64,000 nt of DNA. Origin: an uncultured Candidatus Rokubacteria bacterium (lineage in GTDB: Bacteria > Methylomirabilota > Methylomirabilia > Rokubacteriales > CSP1-6). A program made the translations under genes and the position numbers. Every line of letters begins with the position of its first letter. Positions within the stretch are counted from its first letter, which is position 1. The notes under the pieces were generated by a model. That model was not told the DNA's origin. It did no database searches and saw only the letters and a program-made list of their open reading frames with translations. The stretch is taken from assembly GCA_963758635.1 (NCBI GenBank), contig CAVWWD010000003.1, positions 480,001 through 544,000 on the forward strand, read 5' to 3'. Below, piece by piece: positions 6,718-35,195 of this stretch.

Positions 6718-7690
6718 GTGCCAAAGATCCTCTTCTCGCCCCCCACCTCCAAGACCATCGTCGACATCGGCCGCGGGATGCTGCCCCAGGGCTACGAGTT
6801 CGAGGTCGCCGAGATGGGCACGCCCGAGTTCGCGAAGGCCATCACGGAAGCGGACTTCTACCTGGGATTCGTCCGCGGCGGCATGGACGCGGCGTTCTAC
6901 AAGTCGGCGCCCAAGCTGAAGCTCATCCAGCTCATCAGCGCCGGCTACGACCGGCTCGACGTGGCGGCGGTGCGCGCGGCGGGCGTGCCCGTGGCCAACA
7001 ACGGCGGCGCCAACTCGGTGGCGGTGGCCGAGCACACGATCATGCTGATCCTGTCCGTGCTCAAGCGGCTGGCCTGGCACCACGCCAACGTCTCGTCGGG
7101 CAAGTGGCGCGTGGGCGACTCTCGGCGAGCAGCGCTGCTACGAGGCCGAGGGCAAGACGCTCGGCATCGTGGGGCTGGGCACCATCGGCAAGAAGGTGGC
7201 GCGGCGCGCGCAGCCCTTCGACATGCACCTCCTGTACTACGACATCGCGCGCCTCACCGAGGACCAGGAGGACGCGCTCGGCGTCCGCTTCGCGCTCCTG
7301 CCCGAGCTGCTGCGTGTCTCGGACATCGTGACGCTCCACGTGCCCTTGAACGACAACACGCGCAACATGATGGGGGCCAAGGAGTTCGCGCTGATGAAGG
7401 ACAGCGCGATCCTCATCAACACGTGCCGCGGCCCGGTGGTGAACGAGGACGCCCTCTACCAGGCCCTCACCACCCAGCAGATCGCCGCCGCCGGCCTCGA
7501 CGTCATGACGGAGGAGCCGCCGAAGACCGACCACCCGCTGTTCAAGCTCGACAACGTCACCCTCACCCCCCACACGGCGGGCCCCACGCTCGAGAACTGG
7601 ACCAAGGCCTTCCGGAACGCGTTCGACAACATCCAGCGGGTGGCCCGCGGCGACAAGCCGCTGTGGGTCATCCCCGAGCTGCGCGCCTGA
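6718..7690 (+). CDS. D-isomer-specific 2-hydroxyacid dehydrogenase; frameshift near 7130
   Basis: SAGYDRLD, VAEH, GLGTIG, INTCRG, AAGLDV, TPHTAG. Confidence 0.9.
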
Positions 7691-28153: not shown

Positions 28154-28293
28154 GGGCCCGCCACGGGTAAAGCCCCGCACCGCGGCGGGCGCGGCGTCGG
28201 CGTTCTTCGCAGACCCGGCCCCGGCCTGGAGGGCCCGTTCAGGCCTCGAGCCAAGCCCGCACGTGGATTGACTTCACGGCCCGGGACGCGGAA

Positions 28294-28308
28294 TGGCACG
28301 GCGGATGC
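28294..28308 (+). promoter_or_regulatory. Candidate sigma54 promoter upstream of the S8 protease
   Basis: TGGCACGGCGGATGC fits GG-N10-GC. Confidence 0.4.
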
Positions 28309-28414
28309 GCCTCGGAAGCGACTTACCATGGTGACCGGGCACCCGGCGGATCGGACCTACAATGCTCGCGGTCATCCGGACCCAACCCTGCCCTCCTCGA
28401 GGAGACGCCCCCTC

Positions 28415-31400
28415 GTGATACTCCGCCGGCTCGCCGCCGTCTTCGCCGCCGCGCTCTTCTGCGCCTGTCCGGGCTGGGCGGGGGCCGAGGTCCTCTGGGA
28501 GGGCCGCGTCCAGACCCGCGACGGCCGCTGGCTGACCGTGTCCAAGCAGCTCGTGGGCGGCCGCCCGGTGACGATGTACTCGGACGAGGCCGGGCGGCCG
28601 ATCCTCGAATCGGACCTGCGAGACGATGGGGCGCGCCACGGGCCGGCGCGCGTCTCTCCCGCGCTGGCCACGCTCGCCGGCGGTCCACGGGCGGCGGGGT
28701 CGGTTCCGGTGCTCGTGACCCTCCGCGATCAGCCCACGCCGGGGATCGCCGCCGACGTCAAGACGCTCTTCGATCCGCACGTGGACCGGCAGGCGGCGGC
28801 GCTCCGGACCGCGCGCGAGCGTCACGGCGCGGCAACGCCCGCCGAGGAGCAGGCGCGCGAGCAGGAGGTGCACCAGGCGCGCGACACGCTGAAGCAGACG
28901 ATGGCGACTCAGCGGCTCGAGATCGGCCGCCGCGCCCAGGCCGTCATGCCGTCCCTCCAGGCCGGCGTGCGCCAGCACCTCGCGGCGCTCGGCGGCAGGG
29001 TCACACACGCCTACGCCGTCCGGAACATGCTGGCGGCGCGGCTGCCCGCGGCGATGATCCCCGTGCTCGCGCTCCACCCCGACGTGGCGGAGATCTCCGA
29101 GGACGCGGAGATGACCGCGCACCTCGACACGAGCACGGCCTCGCTCGGCGCCCCCACCTGGTGGACCAACGGGATCGACGGCGCCGGCCCGTGGGACGTG
29201 GGCGTGCTCGACACCGGCATGGACCTCACCAACCCGGGGCTCTCCGCGGTGCCGAGCCAGAGCGGCGTGTTCCTGGCCACCGGGTCCGGCCATCCGAGCT
29301 TCCTCGACAACGCGGCGTCCACCGACGACCTGCACTCGCACGGGACCCACACCGGCGGCATCGTGGTCAGCCGGGGCGCCCTCGGCTTCGTCAACCACAA
29401 GGGCGTGGCCGTCGGCGCCGGCATCATCAACCTGAAGGCGGGTTTCCGAACCACGGGCGGCGGCGGGTTGATGTTCAACTCCGACGCCATGGCCGCGGTG
29501 GAGTGGGCGGCGTTCACCGCCGCCTCGCCGGCCGACGTGTTCAGCCTGAGCTTCGGCGGTTGCACGTCCGCCTCCGACTCGCCTTTCGCCCGGTTCTGGG
29601 ACTCCGTCGTGGACGAGCTCGGCATTCCCGTCGCCATCTCCGGGGGCAACGACGGGCCGGACAACCAGACCACCCAGATCAGCGGCTGCCCGCCGCCGCC
29701 GGTCTTCAGCGATCCGGCGACCGCGTACAACGTCCTCGCGGTGGGCGCCATGGCCGACTTCGCCACCACCGACCGCAGCGACGACGCGGTGGCCAGCTAC
29801 AGCAGCCGCGGTCCCGTGCCCGGCGGCCGCAAGAAGCCCGACCTCACCGCGCCGGGGTCGAACATCACGTCGACCTCGAACACGTGGGAGACCGGGTCGG
29901 ACTATGTCGGGAAGAGCGGGACCAGCATGGCCGCCCCGCACATCGCCGGGGCGCTTGCGCTCCTGCTGGACGGCGGGGTCGTCGATGCCAAGGCGCTCAA
30001 GGCGGTGCTGATCAACTCGGCGCAGGACCTGGGCACGACGGGCTGGAGCGCCGACAGCGGCTGGGGCTACGCGGACCTCACCGCGGCGTTCGCGCTCCGC
30101 GCGAGCTACTTCCTGGCGAGCGTGACGCCGCGCGGGCAGCCGGGGAGCGCGCGGTTCTACCGCGGGTCGCTCGGGGCGGGGGAGCGGGCGACGCTCGTCT
30201 GGAACCGGAACGCCGACTACCGCTACCCCCTCTCGTCCACGGCGTTCGCCCTCAACGACCTCGACCTCACGCTGTACCGGATGACCGACGGCGTCGTGCT
30301 CGACTCGTCGGCCTCCGCCATCGACAACGTCGAGCAGGTGCGGGTGGGCGGGGCCACCTCCGGGCTCGTGCTGAAGGTGGGCGCGATCTCCACCGTGTTC
30401 AACGGCGTGAGCGCGGAGGCGTACGCCCTCGCCACGGGCAGCGGCATCGCCGAGGCCACCGGGCCGGCGCTCGCCGTGTCGCTGGCCGCGCCTGGCTCGA
30501 CGGGGCCGGGCAGCCAGTTCTCCGCGACGGCCACCGTGACCAACATCGGCGACCTGACCGCCCACGCCAACTGCGTCACGCTGGCGCTGCCCGCGGGGTT
30601 TTCGGTGGCGTCCGGGGCGAACCCGCAGTGCATAGGATCGATCGCCCCTGCCGCGCAGGCCGTGGCTTCGTGGACCGTGCAGGCCGCCGTCGCCACCGGC
30701 CCCTACGGGCTGACCGCCACCGACGCCAGCACGTCCTATGGCGAGAGCTTCTCCGGCGCGGGGTCGGCGAACGTCACCGTGACCGGGCTGCCCGGGGTCA
30801 CGGTGACCGCGACGACGCCGACCGTGGCCGAGGCAGGCCCCGGCACGGGCCAGTTCACGGTGAGCCGGACGGGCTCCACCGCCTCCGCGCTCACCGTCGC
30901 CTACACGACGAACGGCGGCGCGGGCGCGGGCAGCGACTACCAGGCGCTCTCCGGGAGCGTGATCATCCCCGCCGGCGCGGCGTCCGCGCCCATCGTCGTC
31001 ACGCCGATCGACGACCCGCTGGTGGAGACGGACGAGACGGTGACGGTCACGATCTCGGCCAGCGCCGCCTACGCGGTCGGGAGCCCGTCGAGCGCCACCG
31101 TGACGATCACCAGCGAGGACTCGGCGCTGCCGGTGGTGACAATCGTGGCGAGCGACCCGACCGCCACCGAGGCGGGCGTGACCACGGGCGCGTTCACGCT
31201 GAGCCGGACCGGGTCCACCGCCAGCGCGCTTGCCGTGTCGTGGAGCATCACGGGCACGGCGACGAAGGGCGTGGACCGCCTGCCCGTGCCGGCGGTGCCG
31301 ACGATCCCGGCGGGGGCCAGCTCGGTGGTCGTCGTCGTGACGCCCATCGACGACGCCGTGGTCGAGGGCGACGAGACGGTGATCGCCACCCTGAACCCCG

Positions 31401-31806
31401 GGACGCCGGCTACACGGTGGGCACGCCCGGCAGCGCGACGGTGACCATCGCCGACAACGACACCATCGCGCTGCCCGTGGTGACCATCGCGGCGACCGAT
31501 GCCACCGCGACGGAGGCGGGCGCGACCACGGGGGCGTTCACGATCACCCGGACCGGCTCGACGGCGGCCGCGCTGACGATCACGTGGAGCATCACGGGCA
31601 CGGCGGTGAAGAGCGTGGACCGGCTGCCCGTGCCGGCGACGCCCGTGATCCCGGCGGGGGCGAGCTCGGTGGTGGTCATCGTCACCCCGATCGACGACAC
31701 GCTCGTCGAGGGCAGCGAGACGGTGATCGCCACCCTCGGCGCCAGCGCCGCCTACACCGTCGGCAGCCCCAGCGCCGCGACGATCACGATCCTCGACAAC
31801 GACTGA
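28415..31806 (+). CDS. Secreted S8 serine peptidase with Ig-like domain and three Calx-beta repeats; frameshift near 31405
   Basis: Signal peptide; VLDTG, HGTHTGG, GTSMAAPH; repeated TPIDD..E.DETV; GAGGAG RBS. Confidence 0.9.
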
Positions 31807-32500
31807 TCAGGAGGCGGGTCCGACGGCGCTCCGGCCGGGCGGCGCATCCGCCGCGGGCGCCTCGCCGAGCGGGATGACGCCGCCCGGCTCGCCGGCGAGG
31901 ATCCAGTCCAGCAGCGCACGGTAGCGATCGGCCGGCACCGCGCCCACCAGCGAGAGCTTCTCGTCGAAGACCACCGTGGGCAGCGCGGACACGCCGAACC
32001 ACGCCGCGCCCTCCGCGTAGTCGCGGAGCACCGCCTCGTAGGCGGGGCCCGCGGTGAAGTCGCGCGTGAAGCGATCCACGTCGAGCCCGCACTCGCGCGC
32101 GATCCCGCCCAGGACGTCGAGGCGGCCGATGTCCAGGTTGTCGCCGAAGTGGGCGTCGAAGATCCGGCGATGGAACGTGTCGAACGCCGCGGGACCCTGG
32201 GCCTCCGCGCACTTCGCGGCGGTGAGGGCGGGCACGCTCGACTCGGGCAGCGCGATCCCGAGATCGGGCGGCACGAAGCGGGCGCGCCGCTCCTCGGCGC
32301 CGGCGCGGCGTCGGCCCTCCTGCGTGGCCGCGCTCGCGCGCCGGTCGGGCCGCCGGTCGGGGATGAGCGGAAACGTGCGCCACTGGACCCGCACCCGGTC
32401 CCCGTACGCCTCCGCCACCTCGTCGAGCCGCACCGCGGCGTTGTAGCACCACGGTCAGAGGTAGTCGGAGAAGACGTTCGAGGCGGATCGGCCCGCTCAT
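31807..32500 (-). CDS. DsbA/FrnE family selenoprotein (Sec at 32455-32457); frameshift near 32478
   Basis: In frame with ORF 31807..32433: VFSDYL-TGA-PWCYNAAVRL; cis-Pro loop GVSALPT; ATG overlaps grdB stop. Confidence 0.85.
32427..32439 (-). promoter_or_regulatory. Putative SECIS of the DsbA-like gene
   Basis: GCCGC-GGT-GCGGC hairpin starting 15 nt after UGA. Confidence 0.55.
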
Positions 32501-33858
32501 GCCGGGCCCGGCGGCGTCCCCGGCGCTTCCCGCCCCTCGGGCGCGGGAGCGGCGGCGAAGACGGTCGGCTGGACGACCTCGGTGGACAGCGCACGCAAGG
32601 CGCTCTCGACGATGCGCCGGCGGAGCGCGCGCTCGTCCTCGGCCGACAGGTCGGCGTTGCCCAGCGGATGGATGATGCCGGCGGCGGGAACGATCCGGTT
32701 CGCTCCCACCATCACGGCGACGGGCGTCATCGTGGACACCTGCACGGTCGGCAGGCCCGCGCGCTCCAGCTCCTTGGCGATCGCTGCGCCGCAGCGAGTG
32801 CTGGTCCCTCAGGTGGAGGTCAGGATGACCGCATCCACCCCGGCGGCGCGGAGCTGCTCGGCGATCTCCCGCCCCATGCGCTGGCTGTGGGCGAGGGTGG
32901 TGGCCACGCCGGTCGTCGAGTAGACGGTCTCGTGGAGCTTGCCGATGGCGCCCTGCTGCTCCAGCTCGCGCGCCGCATCCACGGGCACGAGGCGATGCGG
33001 GTCCTGCTTGACGTAGGTCGTGTCGTAGCCGCGGTGCACGTTGTCGTACCGGGCGGGATCGAGGCCGGCCTGCCCCTGGATGGTGTAGGCGCCCCAGCGG
33101 GTGGCGGCGAGCGCCTCGATGCCGTCGGGGTTGCCGAGGGGCACGATGCCGCCGTCGGTCACCAGCGCGATGGTCGCGCGGGACAGCGCCCCGACGGCGG
33201 GTGGCGCGGCCACGCGCGGGAAGTCGGGCAGGGGCACCTCGCTCCGCAGCGGGCGCCCGGCCAGCTTGTCCAGCAGCATGGCCACGGCGCGCTGGGCGGC
33301 CGGCCGCTCGGTGAGCGCGTTCTTCGTGACGCCGCGGGGGAAGGTGCCCTCGGCCTCGGGCGTACCGAGCGACTCGCCCCGGACGAGCCGGAGCCCGAGC
33401 GCGACGAGACGGCGCGCGTCATCGAGCATCCGGGTGGCCTCGGCGCCCGTCCGCACGATGGGCACGTCGCGGCGATGGAGGTCCACGCCGGGGTTCTCGG
33501 CGTGCATGCCGGTGACCGCGGGCACCCCGAGCCGGGCCGTGACCGCCGCGCAGAGCGCGCCGCACGCCACGCCGTAGCGGCCGGCCTGGAAGGCCGGGCC
33601 GGCGATCACCATGTCCGGCCGCTCGGCTTCGACGAGCGCGGCGATCTCGGCCACCGCGGCTTCCCCGCGCTCGGCCACGTAGTTGTCGCCGCAGATCACC
33701 GTCGCCACCACCGTGCCGGCGTCGCCCAGCGCCTGCTGGACCGCGCGTGCCGCCCCCACCGCCCCGGGCTCGGCGATCGGGGGCAGGCCGGCCTTGTCCT
33801 CGCCGCCCTTCTGGCCGAAGAACTGGTTCACGTAGCAGACGACCCTCAGTGCCGACAT
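32497..33858 (-). CDS. grdB: Glycine/betaine/sarcosine/D-proline reductase family selenoprotein B (Sec at 32809-32811)
   Basis: YVNQFFG; ICGDNY; GPAFQAGRYG; ILTST-TGA-GTSTRCGAAIAKELERAG joins ORFs 32809..33858 and 32497..32745 in frame. Confidence 0.92.
32781..32797 (-). promoter_or_regulatory. Putative SECIS of grdB
   Basis: Perfect TCGCTGC-GGC-GCAGCGA hairpin starting 11 nt after UGA. Confidence 0.7.
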
Positions 33859-33875
33859 GTGGCTCTCCTCGCCGC

Positions 33876-33933
33876 TTCGCGGCTCGGTTCATTCGCGGCT
33901 CGGTTCATGTCGCTCGGTTCAGTGCTCGGTTCA
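33876..33933. repeat. Four tandem copies of TGAACCGAGC (minus strand)
   Basis: GCTCGGTTCA four times at spacings of 12, 14 and 16 nt; first copy includes the grdE-like stop codon. Confidence 0.85.
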
Positions 33934-35195
33934 GTGGATCAGGGCCTGCAGGCGCGCGGCGCCCACCTGCTCGATCGAGCCGCAGAGCGCGCCGTAGCTG
34001 GTCAGGATCTCGCCGAGGAACGTGCCCTCGGATCCCTCGGCGCCGACGACGCGCTCCACCGCGGGCAGCCGGAGCTTCTCCTGCCCGCCGCCCACGTTCA
34101 CGAGCGCGTCCATGCCGGGGAAGTTGAACAGCAGCATGCCCTCCTGGCTGCCGTCGGTGGACATGTCCTCGACGATCAGCGTGGTCTTGACCCCGAGGGC
34201 CTCGCACTGGGCCGCGGCCTGCGCCATGTCCACGTGCGGCGCCCCGCCGCCGATCTTGGTGAAGACCGCGCCGTCCGCGCCCAGCACGTGCGCCACCTGG
34301 CCCGCGGCCATCGCCGCCCCGCGCACGCGCTCGGGCTCGGTGGCCTGGGCCACCGTGAGCACCACCCCGGCGAACCACAGCGTGCGCCCGTGCTCGGCGT
34401 AGAGCGCCCGGATCACCGGATGGTTCTGGATGGCGTGGGTCGTGGAGTTCCGTCCCATGAAGCCGCGCACCACGGCGCCGTCGAGCACCTCGTTCGGGTG
34501 GACCACGCGTCGGCAGCATGCGGCGCACCGGATCGCCGTAGAGGATGCCCTCGTCGATGCCGGTGGGCCGCTGGTGCGAGTGGATCTGGAACACGTAGGC
34601 GACGCGGGGCAGGTGCTCGAGCGCGGCCGGCACGCGCGTGGCCGCGGGCAGCTCGAACGTCTCCACGGAGTCGGCGGGCGCGTCACCCGCGGCGCGAGCC
34701 AGGTACACCGCGGCCTTGAGGCCGGCGAGCCGGAGCGCGGCCAGGTACTCGGAGCGGCCGGCGCCCGCCGCGGCCGACGCCGCGATCACGAGCTGGTGGC
34801 TCCCCGCGTACTCGGTGAGCGCCGCTCCCGGGCCCGACATGTCGAGCAGGGCCAGGGCGGAGGGGTTGTCCAGGTCGCGGTCGGTGACGATGACCGACGC
34901 GCCGGCGAGCGCCCGCGTCCGGCCGCTCCCCGCGCGCGCCATGGCGCCGAGCACGCCGGGGAAGTCCTCGCCGCCGTCCATCTTCGCGCGGGGCGCGATC
35001 ACGTCGAAGATGCGCGCGATGCGGCAGGACTCGCCGGGATGGGCGAGGTCCAGGCGCACGCGCGTGAGGCGCGCGTCGGACTCCAGGTGGCGGGCGAGGT
35101 CGTCGAGGTCGAGCTCGAGCCGGCCGCCGGCAAGGCGCGTGGCCGAGCGCGGCGACCATCGAATCGACGCGGGACCAGAGAAGATCGAGGCGCAT
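33931..35195 (-). CDS. Glycine/sarcosine/betaine reductase component B subunit (GrdE/GrdI-like); frameshifts near 35145 and 34510
   Basis: MRLDL; DLAHPGESCRI..DVIAPRAK; GRTRALAG; LDMSGPGA; HPNEVLDGA; QNHPVIRALY; GADGAV..GGG. Confidence 0.85.

Follow-up and report, generated by a model that had tools for sequence, protein, structure and literature searches.

Does an enzyme of the glycine reductase (Grd) type need GrdA and GrdC, or can its protein B work with a thioredoxin-fold selenoprotein as sole partner? The question is raised by three genes in a 64,000-nucleotide stretch of DNA (the window) from an uncultured Candidatus Rokubacteria bacterium, corresponding to contig C3:480001-544000 of the host genome, here designated G000 (6.17 Mb, 87% complete). 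As an earlier sequence-only reading of the window had recognized, the genes are co-oriented; all lie on the minus strand, and they encode a GrdE/GrdI-like subunit (PF09338), GrdB (PF07355), and a FrnE-like protein (PF01323), the last two with predicted selenocysteine (Sec) residues (Table 1). Glycine reductase-type enzymes are known from anaerobic fermenters of amino acids, and GrdC and GrdD make acetyl phosphate. The canonical glycine reductase reaction is described in PMC10298544. The earlier reading proposed a minimal reductase lacking GrdA and GrdC, with the thioredoxin-fold protein as dedicated partner of GrdB. Gene content and order indicate that the window contains one half of a split grd cluster and not a minimal enzyme. 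Our preferred interpretation, held with moderate confidence, is a substrate-specific protein-B module that would feed a shared GrdA/GrdC and whose own FrnE would re-reduce the Sec of GrdB. Among the top-ranked matches of literature searches, which extended to papers outside subscription journals, we found none on Rokubacterial Grd systems, on Grd systems lacking GrdD, or on FrnE within a grd operon.

The reported lack of grdA, grdC, grdD, and thioredoxin genes holds for the window, in which tblastn with GrdA, GrdC, GrdD, TrxA, and TrxB gave no match. For the genome it does not hold, because grdA with a Sec codon (CxxU; C8:179810-180262) and grdC (C8:177694-179118) are located on contig C8; only grdD was not found genome-wide. 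The two genes are part of a second grd locus (C8:172296-180262), which comprises another Sec-encoding grdB (U-GTCNRC, UxxCxxC), another grdE, an insert, grdC, a Uma2-like gene, and grdA. The insert consists of ca. 2.8 kb of unrelated genes, one for an ABC substrate-binding protein and several small open reading frames that resemble PIN toxin-antitoxin genes.

Among 251 Methylomirabilota genomes, a GrdB match was present in 63 (G000 and 62 relatives), and 28 genomes had a close ortholog of the window's GrdB (ca. 71 to 84% identity). The grd locus was extracted from 18 relatives, in some cases on short contigs, and 80 metagenome loci were chosen because they best matched a Cys-type FrnE alignment, a set that is biased to one genus and that partly overlaps, and is kin to, the genome orthologs. 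Matches to grdA and grdC were found in 53 and 54 of the 62 GrdB-positive relatives and in 23 and 24 of the 28 ortholog genomes, with both genes present in all 12 ortholog genomes that are at least 90% complete. The order grdE-grdB-frnE-(lysE/araC or ABC transporter)-grdC-grdA was seen in 10 of the 18 relatives; grdC-grdA was convergent nearby in 1, and neither gene was in the extracted stretch in 7. Of the metagenome loci with at least 3.5 kb of downstream sequence, 30 of 31 had grdC within 6 kb downstream of frnE and 24 of 31 had grdA. Because grdA and grdC are elsewhere in the G000 genome and adjoin the module in many relatives, the window is considered to hold half of a split cluster.

These results bear directly on the possibility that GrdE, GrdB, and FrnE are self-sufficient, as the earlier reading supposed, in the style of D-proline reductase. 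In such an enzyme, Cys356 of GrdB would cleave the selenoether, FrnE would re-reduce the resulting Se-S bond, and the product would be freed without GrdA or GrdC. The three genes do move as a unit away from grdC and grdA in G000 and in four relatives (G165, G211, G135, and G187), GrdB retains U and the distal C as in the UxxC of PrdB, with PrdB/PrdC as a precedent, and 5 of the 28 ortholog genomes lack a grdA match. However, those five genomes are only 81 to 89% complete, in most of the informative loci grdC-grdA and the module lie together on the DNA, and GrdB, unlike PrdB, is full length and retains its N-terminal domain. Self-sufficiency is therefore unlikely. The earlier reading named, as one outcome that would count against it, a DsbA linkage that is not conserved together with service of the enzyme by grdA/C/D from elsewhere; grdA and grdC do exist elsewhere in the genome, but the linkage is conserved.

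The frnE gene is tied to a single kind of GrdB. In a quickly computed GrdB tree, from which two frameshifted rows were excluded, the close orthologs formed one clade of 16 full-length rows with a support of 99. In all 28 ortholog genomes frnE directly followed the clade grdB (in one of them it is cut by the contig end), and across the 251 genomes all 27 FrnE matches of at least 60% identity adjoined a clade grdB, with an ATGA-type junction retained in most. Likewise, grdB was adjacent in 73 of the 73 metagenome loci with at least 200 bases upstream (70 identified by script and 3 by inspection). In a comparison of 65 GrdB rows, 16 in the frnE-linked clade and 49 others, none of the 49 others had frnE as a neighbor. 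The three genes also stayed together without an adjacent grdC-grdA pair in G000 and in 7 of the 18 relatives, some on short contigs. The exclusive tie to one GrdB clade fits the earlier proposal of a dedicated partner.

The sequence of FrnE suggests a cytoplasmic thiol oxidoreductase. The protein scored 70.9 bits against PF01323 (cutoff, 25.6), it fits the FrnE subfamily of DsbA in its CP(W/F)C-type motif, its DsbA-like domain, and the apparent lack of an export signal, and its top sequence matches in the Protein Data Bank (PDB) are FrnE. It begins 10 residues ahead of the motif, directly at the thioredoxin-fold strand, and is thus likely to be cytoplasmic. With form 1 of the DsbA-like selenoproteins (PF01323, UxxC) and with Deinococcus FrnE it shares a U/C-P-W-C motif in a DsbA-family domain; it differs from them in lacking the C-terminal CxxxxC tail and in being fixed within a Grd operon. 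Deinococcus FrnE is described as a cytoplasmic disulfide reductase that acts with TrxR (PMC8945050), and a review describes the functions of the DsbA-like selenoprotein family as largely uncharacterized (PMC13188914).

It is conceivable that FrnE is a general oxidative-stress reductase that entered the operon and has no special partner, or that the module is mainly a peroxidase or detoxifier. Some FrnE match is present in 132 of the 251 genomes, including stand-alone homologs (35 to 45% identity) across the phylum, nearly all with TGA in the match; of the 27 genomes in which a clade FrnE was matched, just 5 have such a homolog as well. The title of one paper referenced by PMC3091704 states a peroxidase activity of GrdB. 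Yet every one of the 27 clade FrnE genes with coordinates is coupled to grdB, and contig C11 of G000 bears another FrnE-like gene with a Sec codon, which makes a general stress function improbable.

A more serious alternative is that FrnE substitutes for thioredoxin and reduces GrdA on behalf of the whole Grd system. Two Firmicutes loci have trxA-trxB beside grd, there are no trx genes in the loci with the ancestral-looking order grdE to grdA, and the intervening position of frnE in that order, together with the downstream grdC in nearly all informative metagenome loci, is what this alternative predicts. A general thioredoxin system is nevertheless available, because 12 of 14 genomes have a trxB above the cutoff, and in G000 there are two trxA matches and a frameshifted trxB. 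Furthermore, 35 GrdB-positive genomes outside the clade are without the clade FrnE, yet 31 of them have grdA. GrdB is favored as the partner of FrnE because frnE stays with grdB, not with grdA, in split clusters such as that of G000, and because GrdA does without the clade FrnE in genomes whose B modules belong to other clades. We therefore regard the reduction of GrdA by FrnE as rather doubtful, although it is the strongest competitor to the preferred reading.

Both predicted selenoproteins depend on the decoding of UGA. The GrdB readthrough sequence ILTST-U-GTSTRCG is present as the earlier reading gave it, and so are DYL-U-PWC in FrnE and the ATGA overlap, in which the frnE ATG (32498-32500) overlies the grdB stop codon (32497-32499). 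The Sec machinery that it called for was found: tRNA-Sec (selC; C10:238999-239096), selA and selB on C10, and selD on C3. The pairing of Cys and Sec that would be expected of a genuine Sec codon was evident at the frnE position, which was TGA in 16 and a Cys codon in 12 of the 28 ortholog genomes; of the 80 metagenome loci, 38 had TGA and 39 had Cys (3 could not be read). The grdB TGA was conserved in the ortholog loci displayed. A hairpin resembling a Sec insertion sequence (SECIS) downstream of the frnE codon, with a 5-bp stem and a loop starting with GG, was intact in 15 of 15 UGA orthologs versus 5 of 12 Cys orthologs in the genomes; for the metagenome loci, the corresponding counts were 38 of 38 and 15 of 39. 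For grdB, all seven pairs of the hairpin were kept in 56 of 62 GrdB rows, and its arms vary by compensating pairs across paralogs. Folding energies of the whole 60-nucleotide stretches after the UGAs were not significant. Among the short-read differences listed, there was no TGC or TGT allele at either UGA. These comparisons support the conclusion that both UGAs behave as Sec codons, and Sec insertion is predicted. GrdB and DsbA-like selenoproteins are among the prokaryotic selenoprotein families listed in PMC13188914.

As assembled, two of the three genes are broken, a feature absent from the earlier reading. An extra base at 32477 shifts the frnE ATG by one position relative to the frame of DYL-U-PWC, and grdE is interrupted by two 1-base insertions near 35148 and 34507. 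In short-read contigs of near-identical strains, for which indel counts are minimum counts, base 32477 was missing in at least 5 of 8 runs, one base at 34506-8 in at least 6 of 8 runs, and one base at 35148 in at least 3 of 4 runs. The frnE start is in frame in orthologs, and the selA, selD, grdC, and trxB genes of the G000 assembly are split by frame breaks in a like manner. Because the short-read contigs are without those bases, the orthologs are in frame, and other genes are split alike, the three frameshifts are most likely assembly errors. The same comparison argues against a decaying pseudo-operon in which both UGAs terminate translation and the frameshifts are genuine. The three frameshifts in the assembled window speak for it, but the UGAs are retained or replaced by Cys codons, with conservation of a SECIS-like kind, and this possibility is largely refuted and close to negligible. 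A GrdB-FrnE fusion with three selenocysteines, suggested by the fact that the assembled DYL-U-PWC lies in the grdB frame, was rejected because orthologs and short-read contigs have two genes. Contigs from RNA runs span parts of all three genes; such contigs cannot show expression.

What the module acts on is constrained by the family tests. GrdB scored 511.6 bits against TIGR01918 (glycine/betaine/sarcosine/proline reductase selenoprotein B; cutoff, 65.45), and the module stayed below the cutoffs of the glycine reductase profile TIGR01917 (453 versus 602), the sarcosine reductase profiles NF040794 (498 versus 800) and NF040793 (211 to 226 versus 780), the betaine reductase profile NF040795 (478 versus 775), and the fluoroacetate FarE profile NF053623 (174 to 184 on intact orthologs versus 675). 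Identity with FarEB, GrdFG, or GrdHI was rejected on these scores. Among the 65 rows, only a Firmicutes control (L140) matched the GrdB motif given in PMC9751293, and none matched its GrdF motif, for which there was no positive control. None of the 59 neighbor representatives scanned gave the radical SAM match expected of farC, and no betaine transporter was seen in the scanned neighborhoods. GrdB had no sequence match and no close fold in the PDB. Database copies of the frnE-linked GrdB end at the UGA and are mostly labeled glycine reductase or betaine reductase, labels that have no backing from the sequence features.

Three features of the clade stand out. All 16 clade GrdB rows have UxxSxxC and not UxxCxxC, they read HRGYD where others read HGGYD, and in GrdE the cleavage region, GNCVSACDKN in the control, is RGFMGR with a 4-residue gap in 15 of 15 orthologs. 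GrdI and FarE, alpha subunits that likewise have no cleavage cysteines, do not form a pyruvoyl group, and FarB is without the CxxC that protects Sec (PMC10838667). The earlier suggestion of a different substrate is likely to be correct, given a GrdE without pyruvoyl cysteines and a GrdB that departs from both published motifs; the substrate is probably not glycine. Because GrdE is without the cysteines that form a pyruvoyl group, no Schiff base would be needed, and the substrate may be a substituted acetate, perhaps with a second anionic group. Just ahead of the module, 8 of the 18 relatives and 10 of 19 metagenome loci have a gene for a D-2-hydroxyacid dehydrogenase. It was rejected as a guide to the substrate because it reached no subfamily cutoff and the closest G000 homolog is elsewhere (C8:802393). 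The window itself contains, at 6718-7687 on the plus strand, a frameshifted paralog (57 to 69%) of the dehydrogenase that precedes grdE in relatives; the C8 homolog is closer (85%).

The number of B modules exceeds that of A. A single grdA was present in 52 of the 53 grdA-positive relatives, whereas GrdB matches numbered up to five per genome, which agrees with a published account in which one A/C system is supplied by several B complexes (PMC10838667). The GrdB paralog clades of the Methylomirabilota (L103 to L142) have the Sec motifs UxxCxxC, UxxSxxC, UxxGxxC, UxxGxxS, and UxxCxxG, and none of their GrdE partners has the NCVSAC pair of the control in the aligned cleavage region. These paralogs point to what looks like an unexplored set of substrates.

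The last step is also unusual. The GrdD profile NF040747 found no GrdD in G000, within the 87% of the genome that is recovered, or in any of the 62 relatives, and the same search passed the cutoff in all three controls, which were Firmicutes carrying GrdB. A tblastn search of G000 with two control GrdD proteins hit the plsX region only. No second PlsX that might be a divergent GrdD was seen: each of 14 Methylomirabilota genomes has one PlsX-family gene, versus two in a control. FrnE is an unlikely substitute for GrdD, which is missing in all 63 GrdB genomes, while the clade FrnE is found in 28. No Pta was found in the 14 genomes, where the matches were plsX and one short fragment. In GrdD, Cys359 is the thiol that forms acetyl phosphate. 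The invariant Cys259 of GrdC aligns with the catalytic Cys of FabH, and a GrdC model (predicted local distance difference test [pLDDT] score, 89) matches the folds of FabH and thiolase.

These elements suggest the following mechanism for the preferred reading. The GrdB selenolate would attack an X-CH2-COO- substrate without a Schiff base, as in GrdI and FarE, and the clade-specific Arg of HRGYD hints at a second anionic group on the substrate. The carboxymethyl group would move from GrdB to the Sec of the shared GrdA, and the FabH-fold GrdC would take the acetyl group. Because neither GrdD nor Pta was found, the simplest handover would be to coenzyme A (CoA) and not to acetyl phosphate. FrnE, fed by TrxB/Trx, would reduce the Sec350-Cys356 selenenylsulfide of GrdB, as PrdC is proposed to do for PrdB (PMC3091704), and GrdA would be reduced by ordinary thioredoxin. 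The pathway as a whole, a Rokubacterial Grd system without GrdD or a pyruvoyl group in which a relay of three selenoproteins (FrnE, GrdB, and GrdA) cleaves a substituted acetate and GrdC alone delivers acetyl-CoA, is a tentative extension in which we place considerably less confidence than in the preferred reading of the module. Carboxymethyl ethers, thioethers, and phosphates are examples of dianions that might serve as its substrate.

Several observations weigh against this interpretation. The clade is one lineage, and the frnE linkage may reflect a single ancestral event. Of the 36 GrdB rows without CxxC, 20 have no frnE neighbor, including 4 with the same UxxSxxC; because loss of CxxC does not predict frnE, the idea that FrnE compensates for the lost Cys was discarded as a general rule. 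The position of frnE between grdB and grdC-grdA in 10 of 18 relatives fits a reduction of GrdA by FrnE equally well, all the more because grd loci are almost without trx genes (0 of 80 Rokubacterial metagenome loci and one thioredoxin-like neighbor in locus L142). With regard to acetyl-CoA, canonical GrdC has the same Cys yet needs GrdD, and 11 of 14 genomes have AckA, so that acetyl phosphate might be made by another route.

The module has features in common with several known systems. With the Stickland glycine and sarcosine reductases (GrdE/GrdB, GrdG/GrdF, GrdA, GrdC/GrdD, TrxA/TrxB) it shares homologous B subunits, Sec in ST-U-G, and, in the G000 genome, a Sec-containing GrdA with CxxU and GrdC. 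It differs from them in its GrdE without pyruvoyl cysteines, its UxxSxxC, its scores below the family-specific NCBIfam cutoffs, the apparent lack of GrdD and of local trx genes, and the FrnE selenoprotein in its operon. Like GrdI of betaine reductase (GrdH/GrdI; PMC10838667), its alpha subunit is without cleavage cysteines, but it is set apart by its NF040795 score, by neighborhoods in which no betaine transporter was seen, and by the missing GrdD. The fluoroacetate reductase of Cloacibacillus (farACEB) also resembles it, as FarB is without the protective CxxC, FarE is without cleavage cysteines, an extra oxidoreductase is proposed to reactivate Sec, and the system is predicted to feed shared A and C proteins (PMC10838667). 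There, however, the helper is a radical SAM protein and not a thioredoxin-fold selenoprotein, and the FarE profile was not reached here. In D-proline reductase (PrdA/PrdB/PrdC), PrdB likewise has a selenoprotein dedicated to it, PrdC, for which a role in reducing the Se-S bond is proposed (PMC3091704); unlike FrnE, PrdC is an NADH/FMN/Fe-S protein, PrdA has a pyruvoyl group, and PrdB is short (GrdB scored 82 against TIGR04483, versus a cutoff of 300). Three Firmicutes GrdB proteins (L096, L098, and L141) have the same UxxSxxC, GrdE without cysteines, and no frnE; L141 is beside grdA, grdC, and grdD.

Table 1. Features of the three-gene locus, with positions in the window
Feature	Position	Strand	Remarks
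grdE/grdI-like gene, alpha subunit of protein B (PF09338)	33931..35195	-	without NCVSAC-type cleavage cysteines
grdB-family selenoprotein gene (PF07355)	32497..33858	-	453 aa, U350; TST-U-GT-S-TR-C (UxxSxxC); clade-specific HRGYD loop
Predicted Sec UGA of grdB	32809..32811	-	TGA in all ortholog loci displayed
SECIS-like hairpin of grdB	32781..32797	-	7-bp stem; GGC loop ca. 19 nt past UGA
frnE-like gene, thiol oxidoreductase of the DsbA family (PF01323)	31807..32500	-	U/C-P-W-C; ATGA coupling to grdB
Predicted Sec UGA of frnE	32455..32457	-	TGA/Cys alternation among orthologs
SECIS-like hairpin of frnE	32427..32439	-	5-bp stem; GGT loop ca. 21 nt past UGA

Other features of the locus and genome were observed in passing. 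Between grdE and grdB (window 33859-33935) there are four copies of TGAACCGAGC, and short-read contigs are 11 to 13 bases shorter there. A gene for a subtilase (S8) with Calx-beta repeats (window 28268-31806, plus strand) is arranged tail to tail with frnE, so that two TGA stops abut; it has a frame break near 31410. Two relatives have, a few kilobases upstream of the module, a UGSC-family gene that contains an in-frame TGA, together with the partner of that gene (L056:3498-5047 and L057:13209-14716). In G000, selD (C3:50900-52010) has a CGGC motif and is apparently fused to an N-terminal domain, possibly an oxidoreductase. Four additional candidate selenoprotein genes, each with a hairpin at SECIS distance, were seen in G000: a FrnE-like one (DYV-U-PWC) at C11:73705-74187 and, among C5:669051-669488, C8:80741-81151, and C8:861321-861746, one for an exported DsbA-like protein (DYQ-U-PYC) and two short PrdB-like genes (U-PLC and U-PVC).

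With no detectable GrdD in an abundant soil lineage that retains GrdA and GrdC alongside as many as five B modules, the last step of the pathway must differ from the canonical one. Such a lineage allows the roles of GrdC and GrdD to be tested separately. The DsbA-like selenoprotein family gains in GrdB the first clear candidate partner found in this analysis. If the proposed GrdD-less route to acetyl-CoA is true, the chemistry would be novel within the family, and soil organic acids would gain a new entry route.

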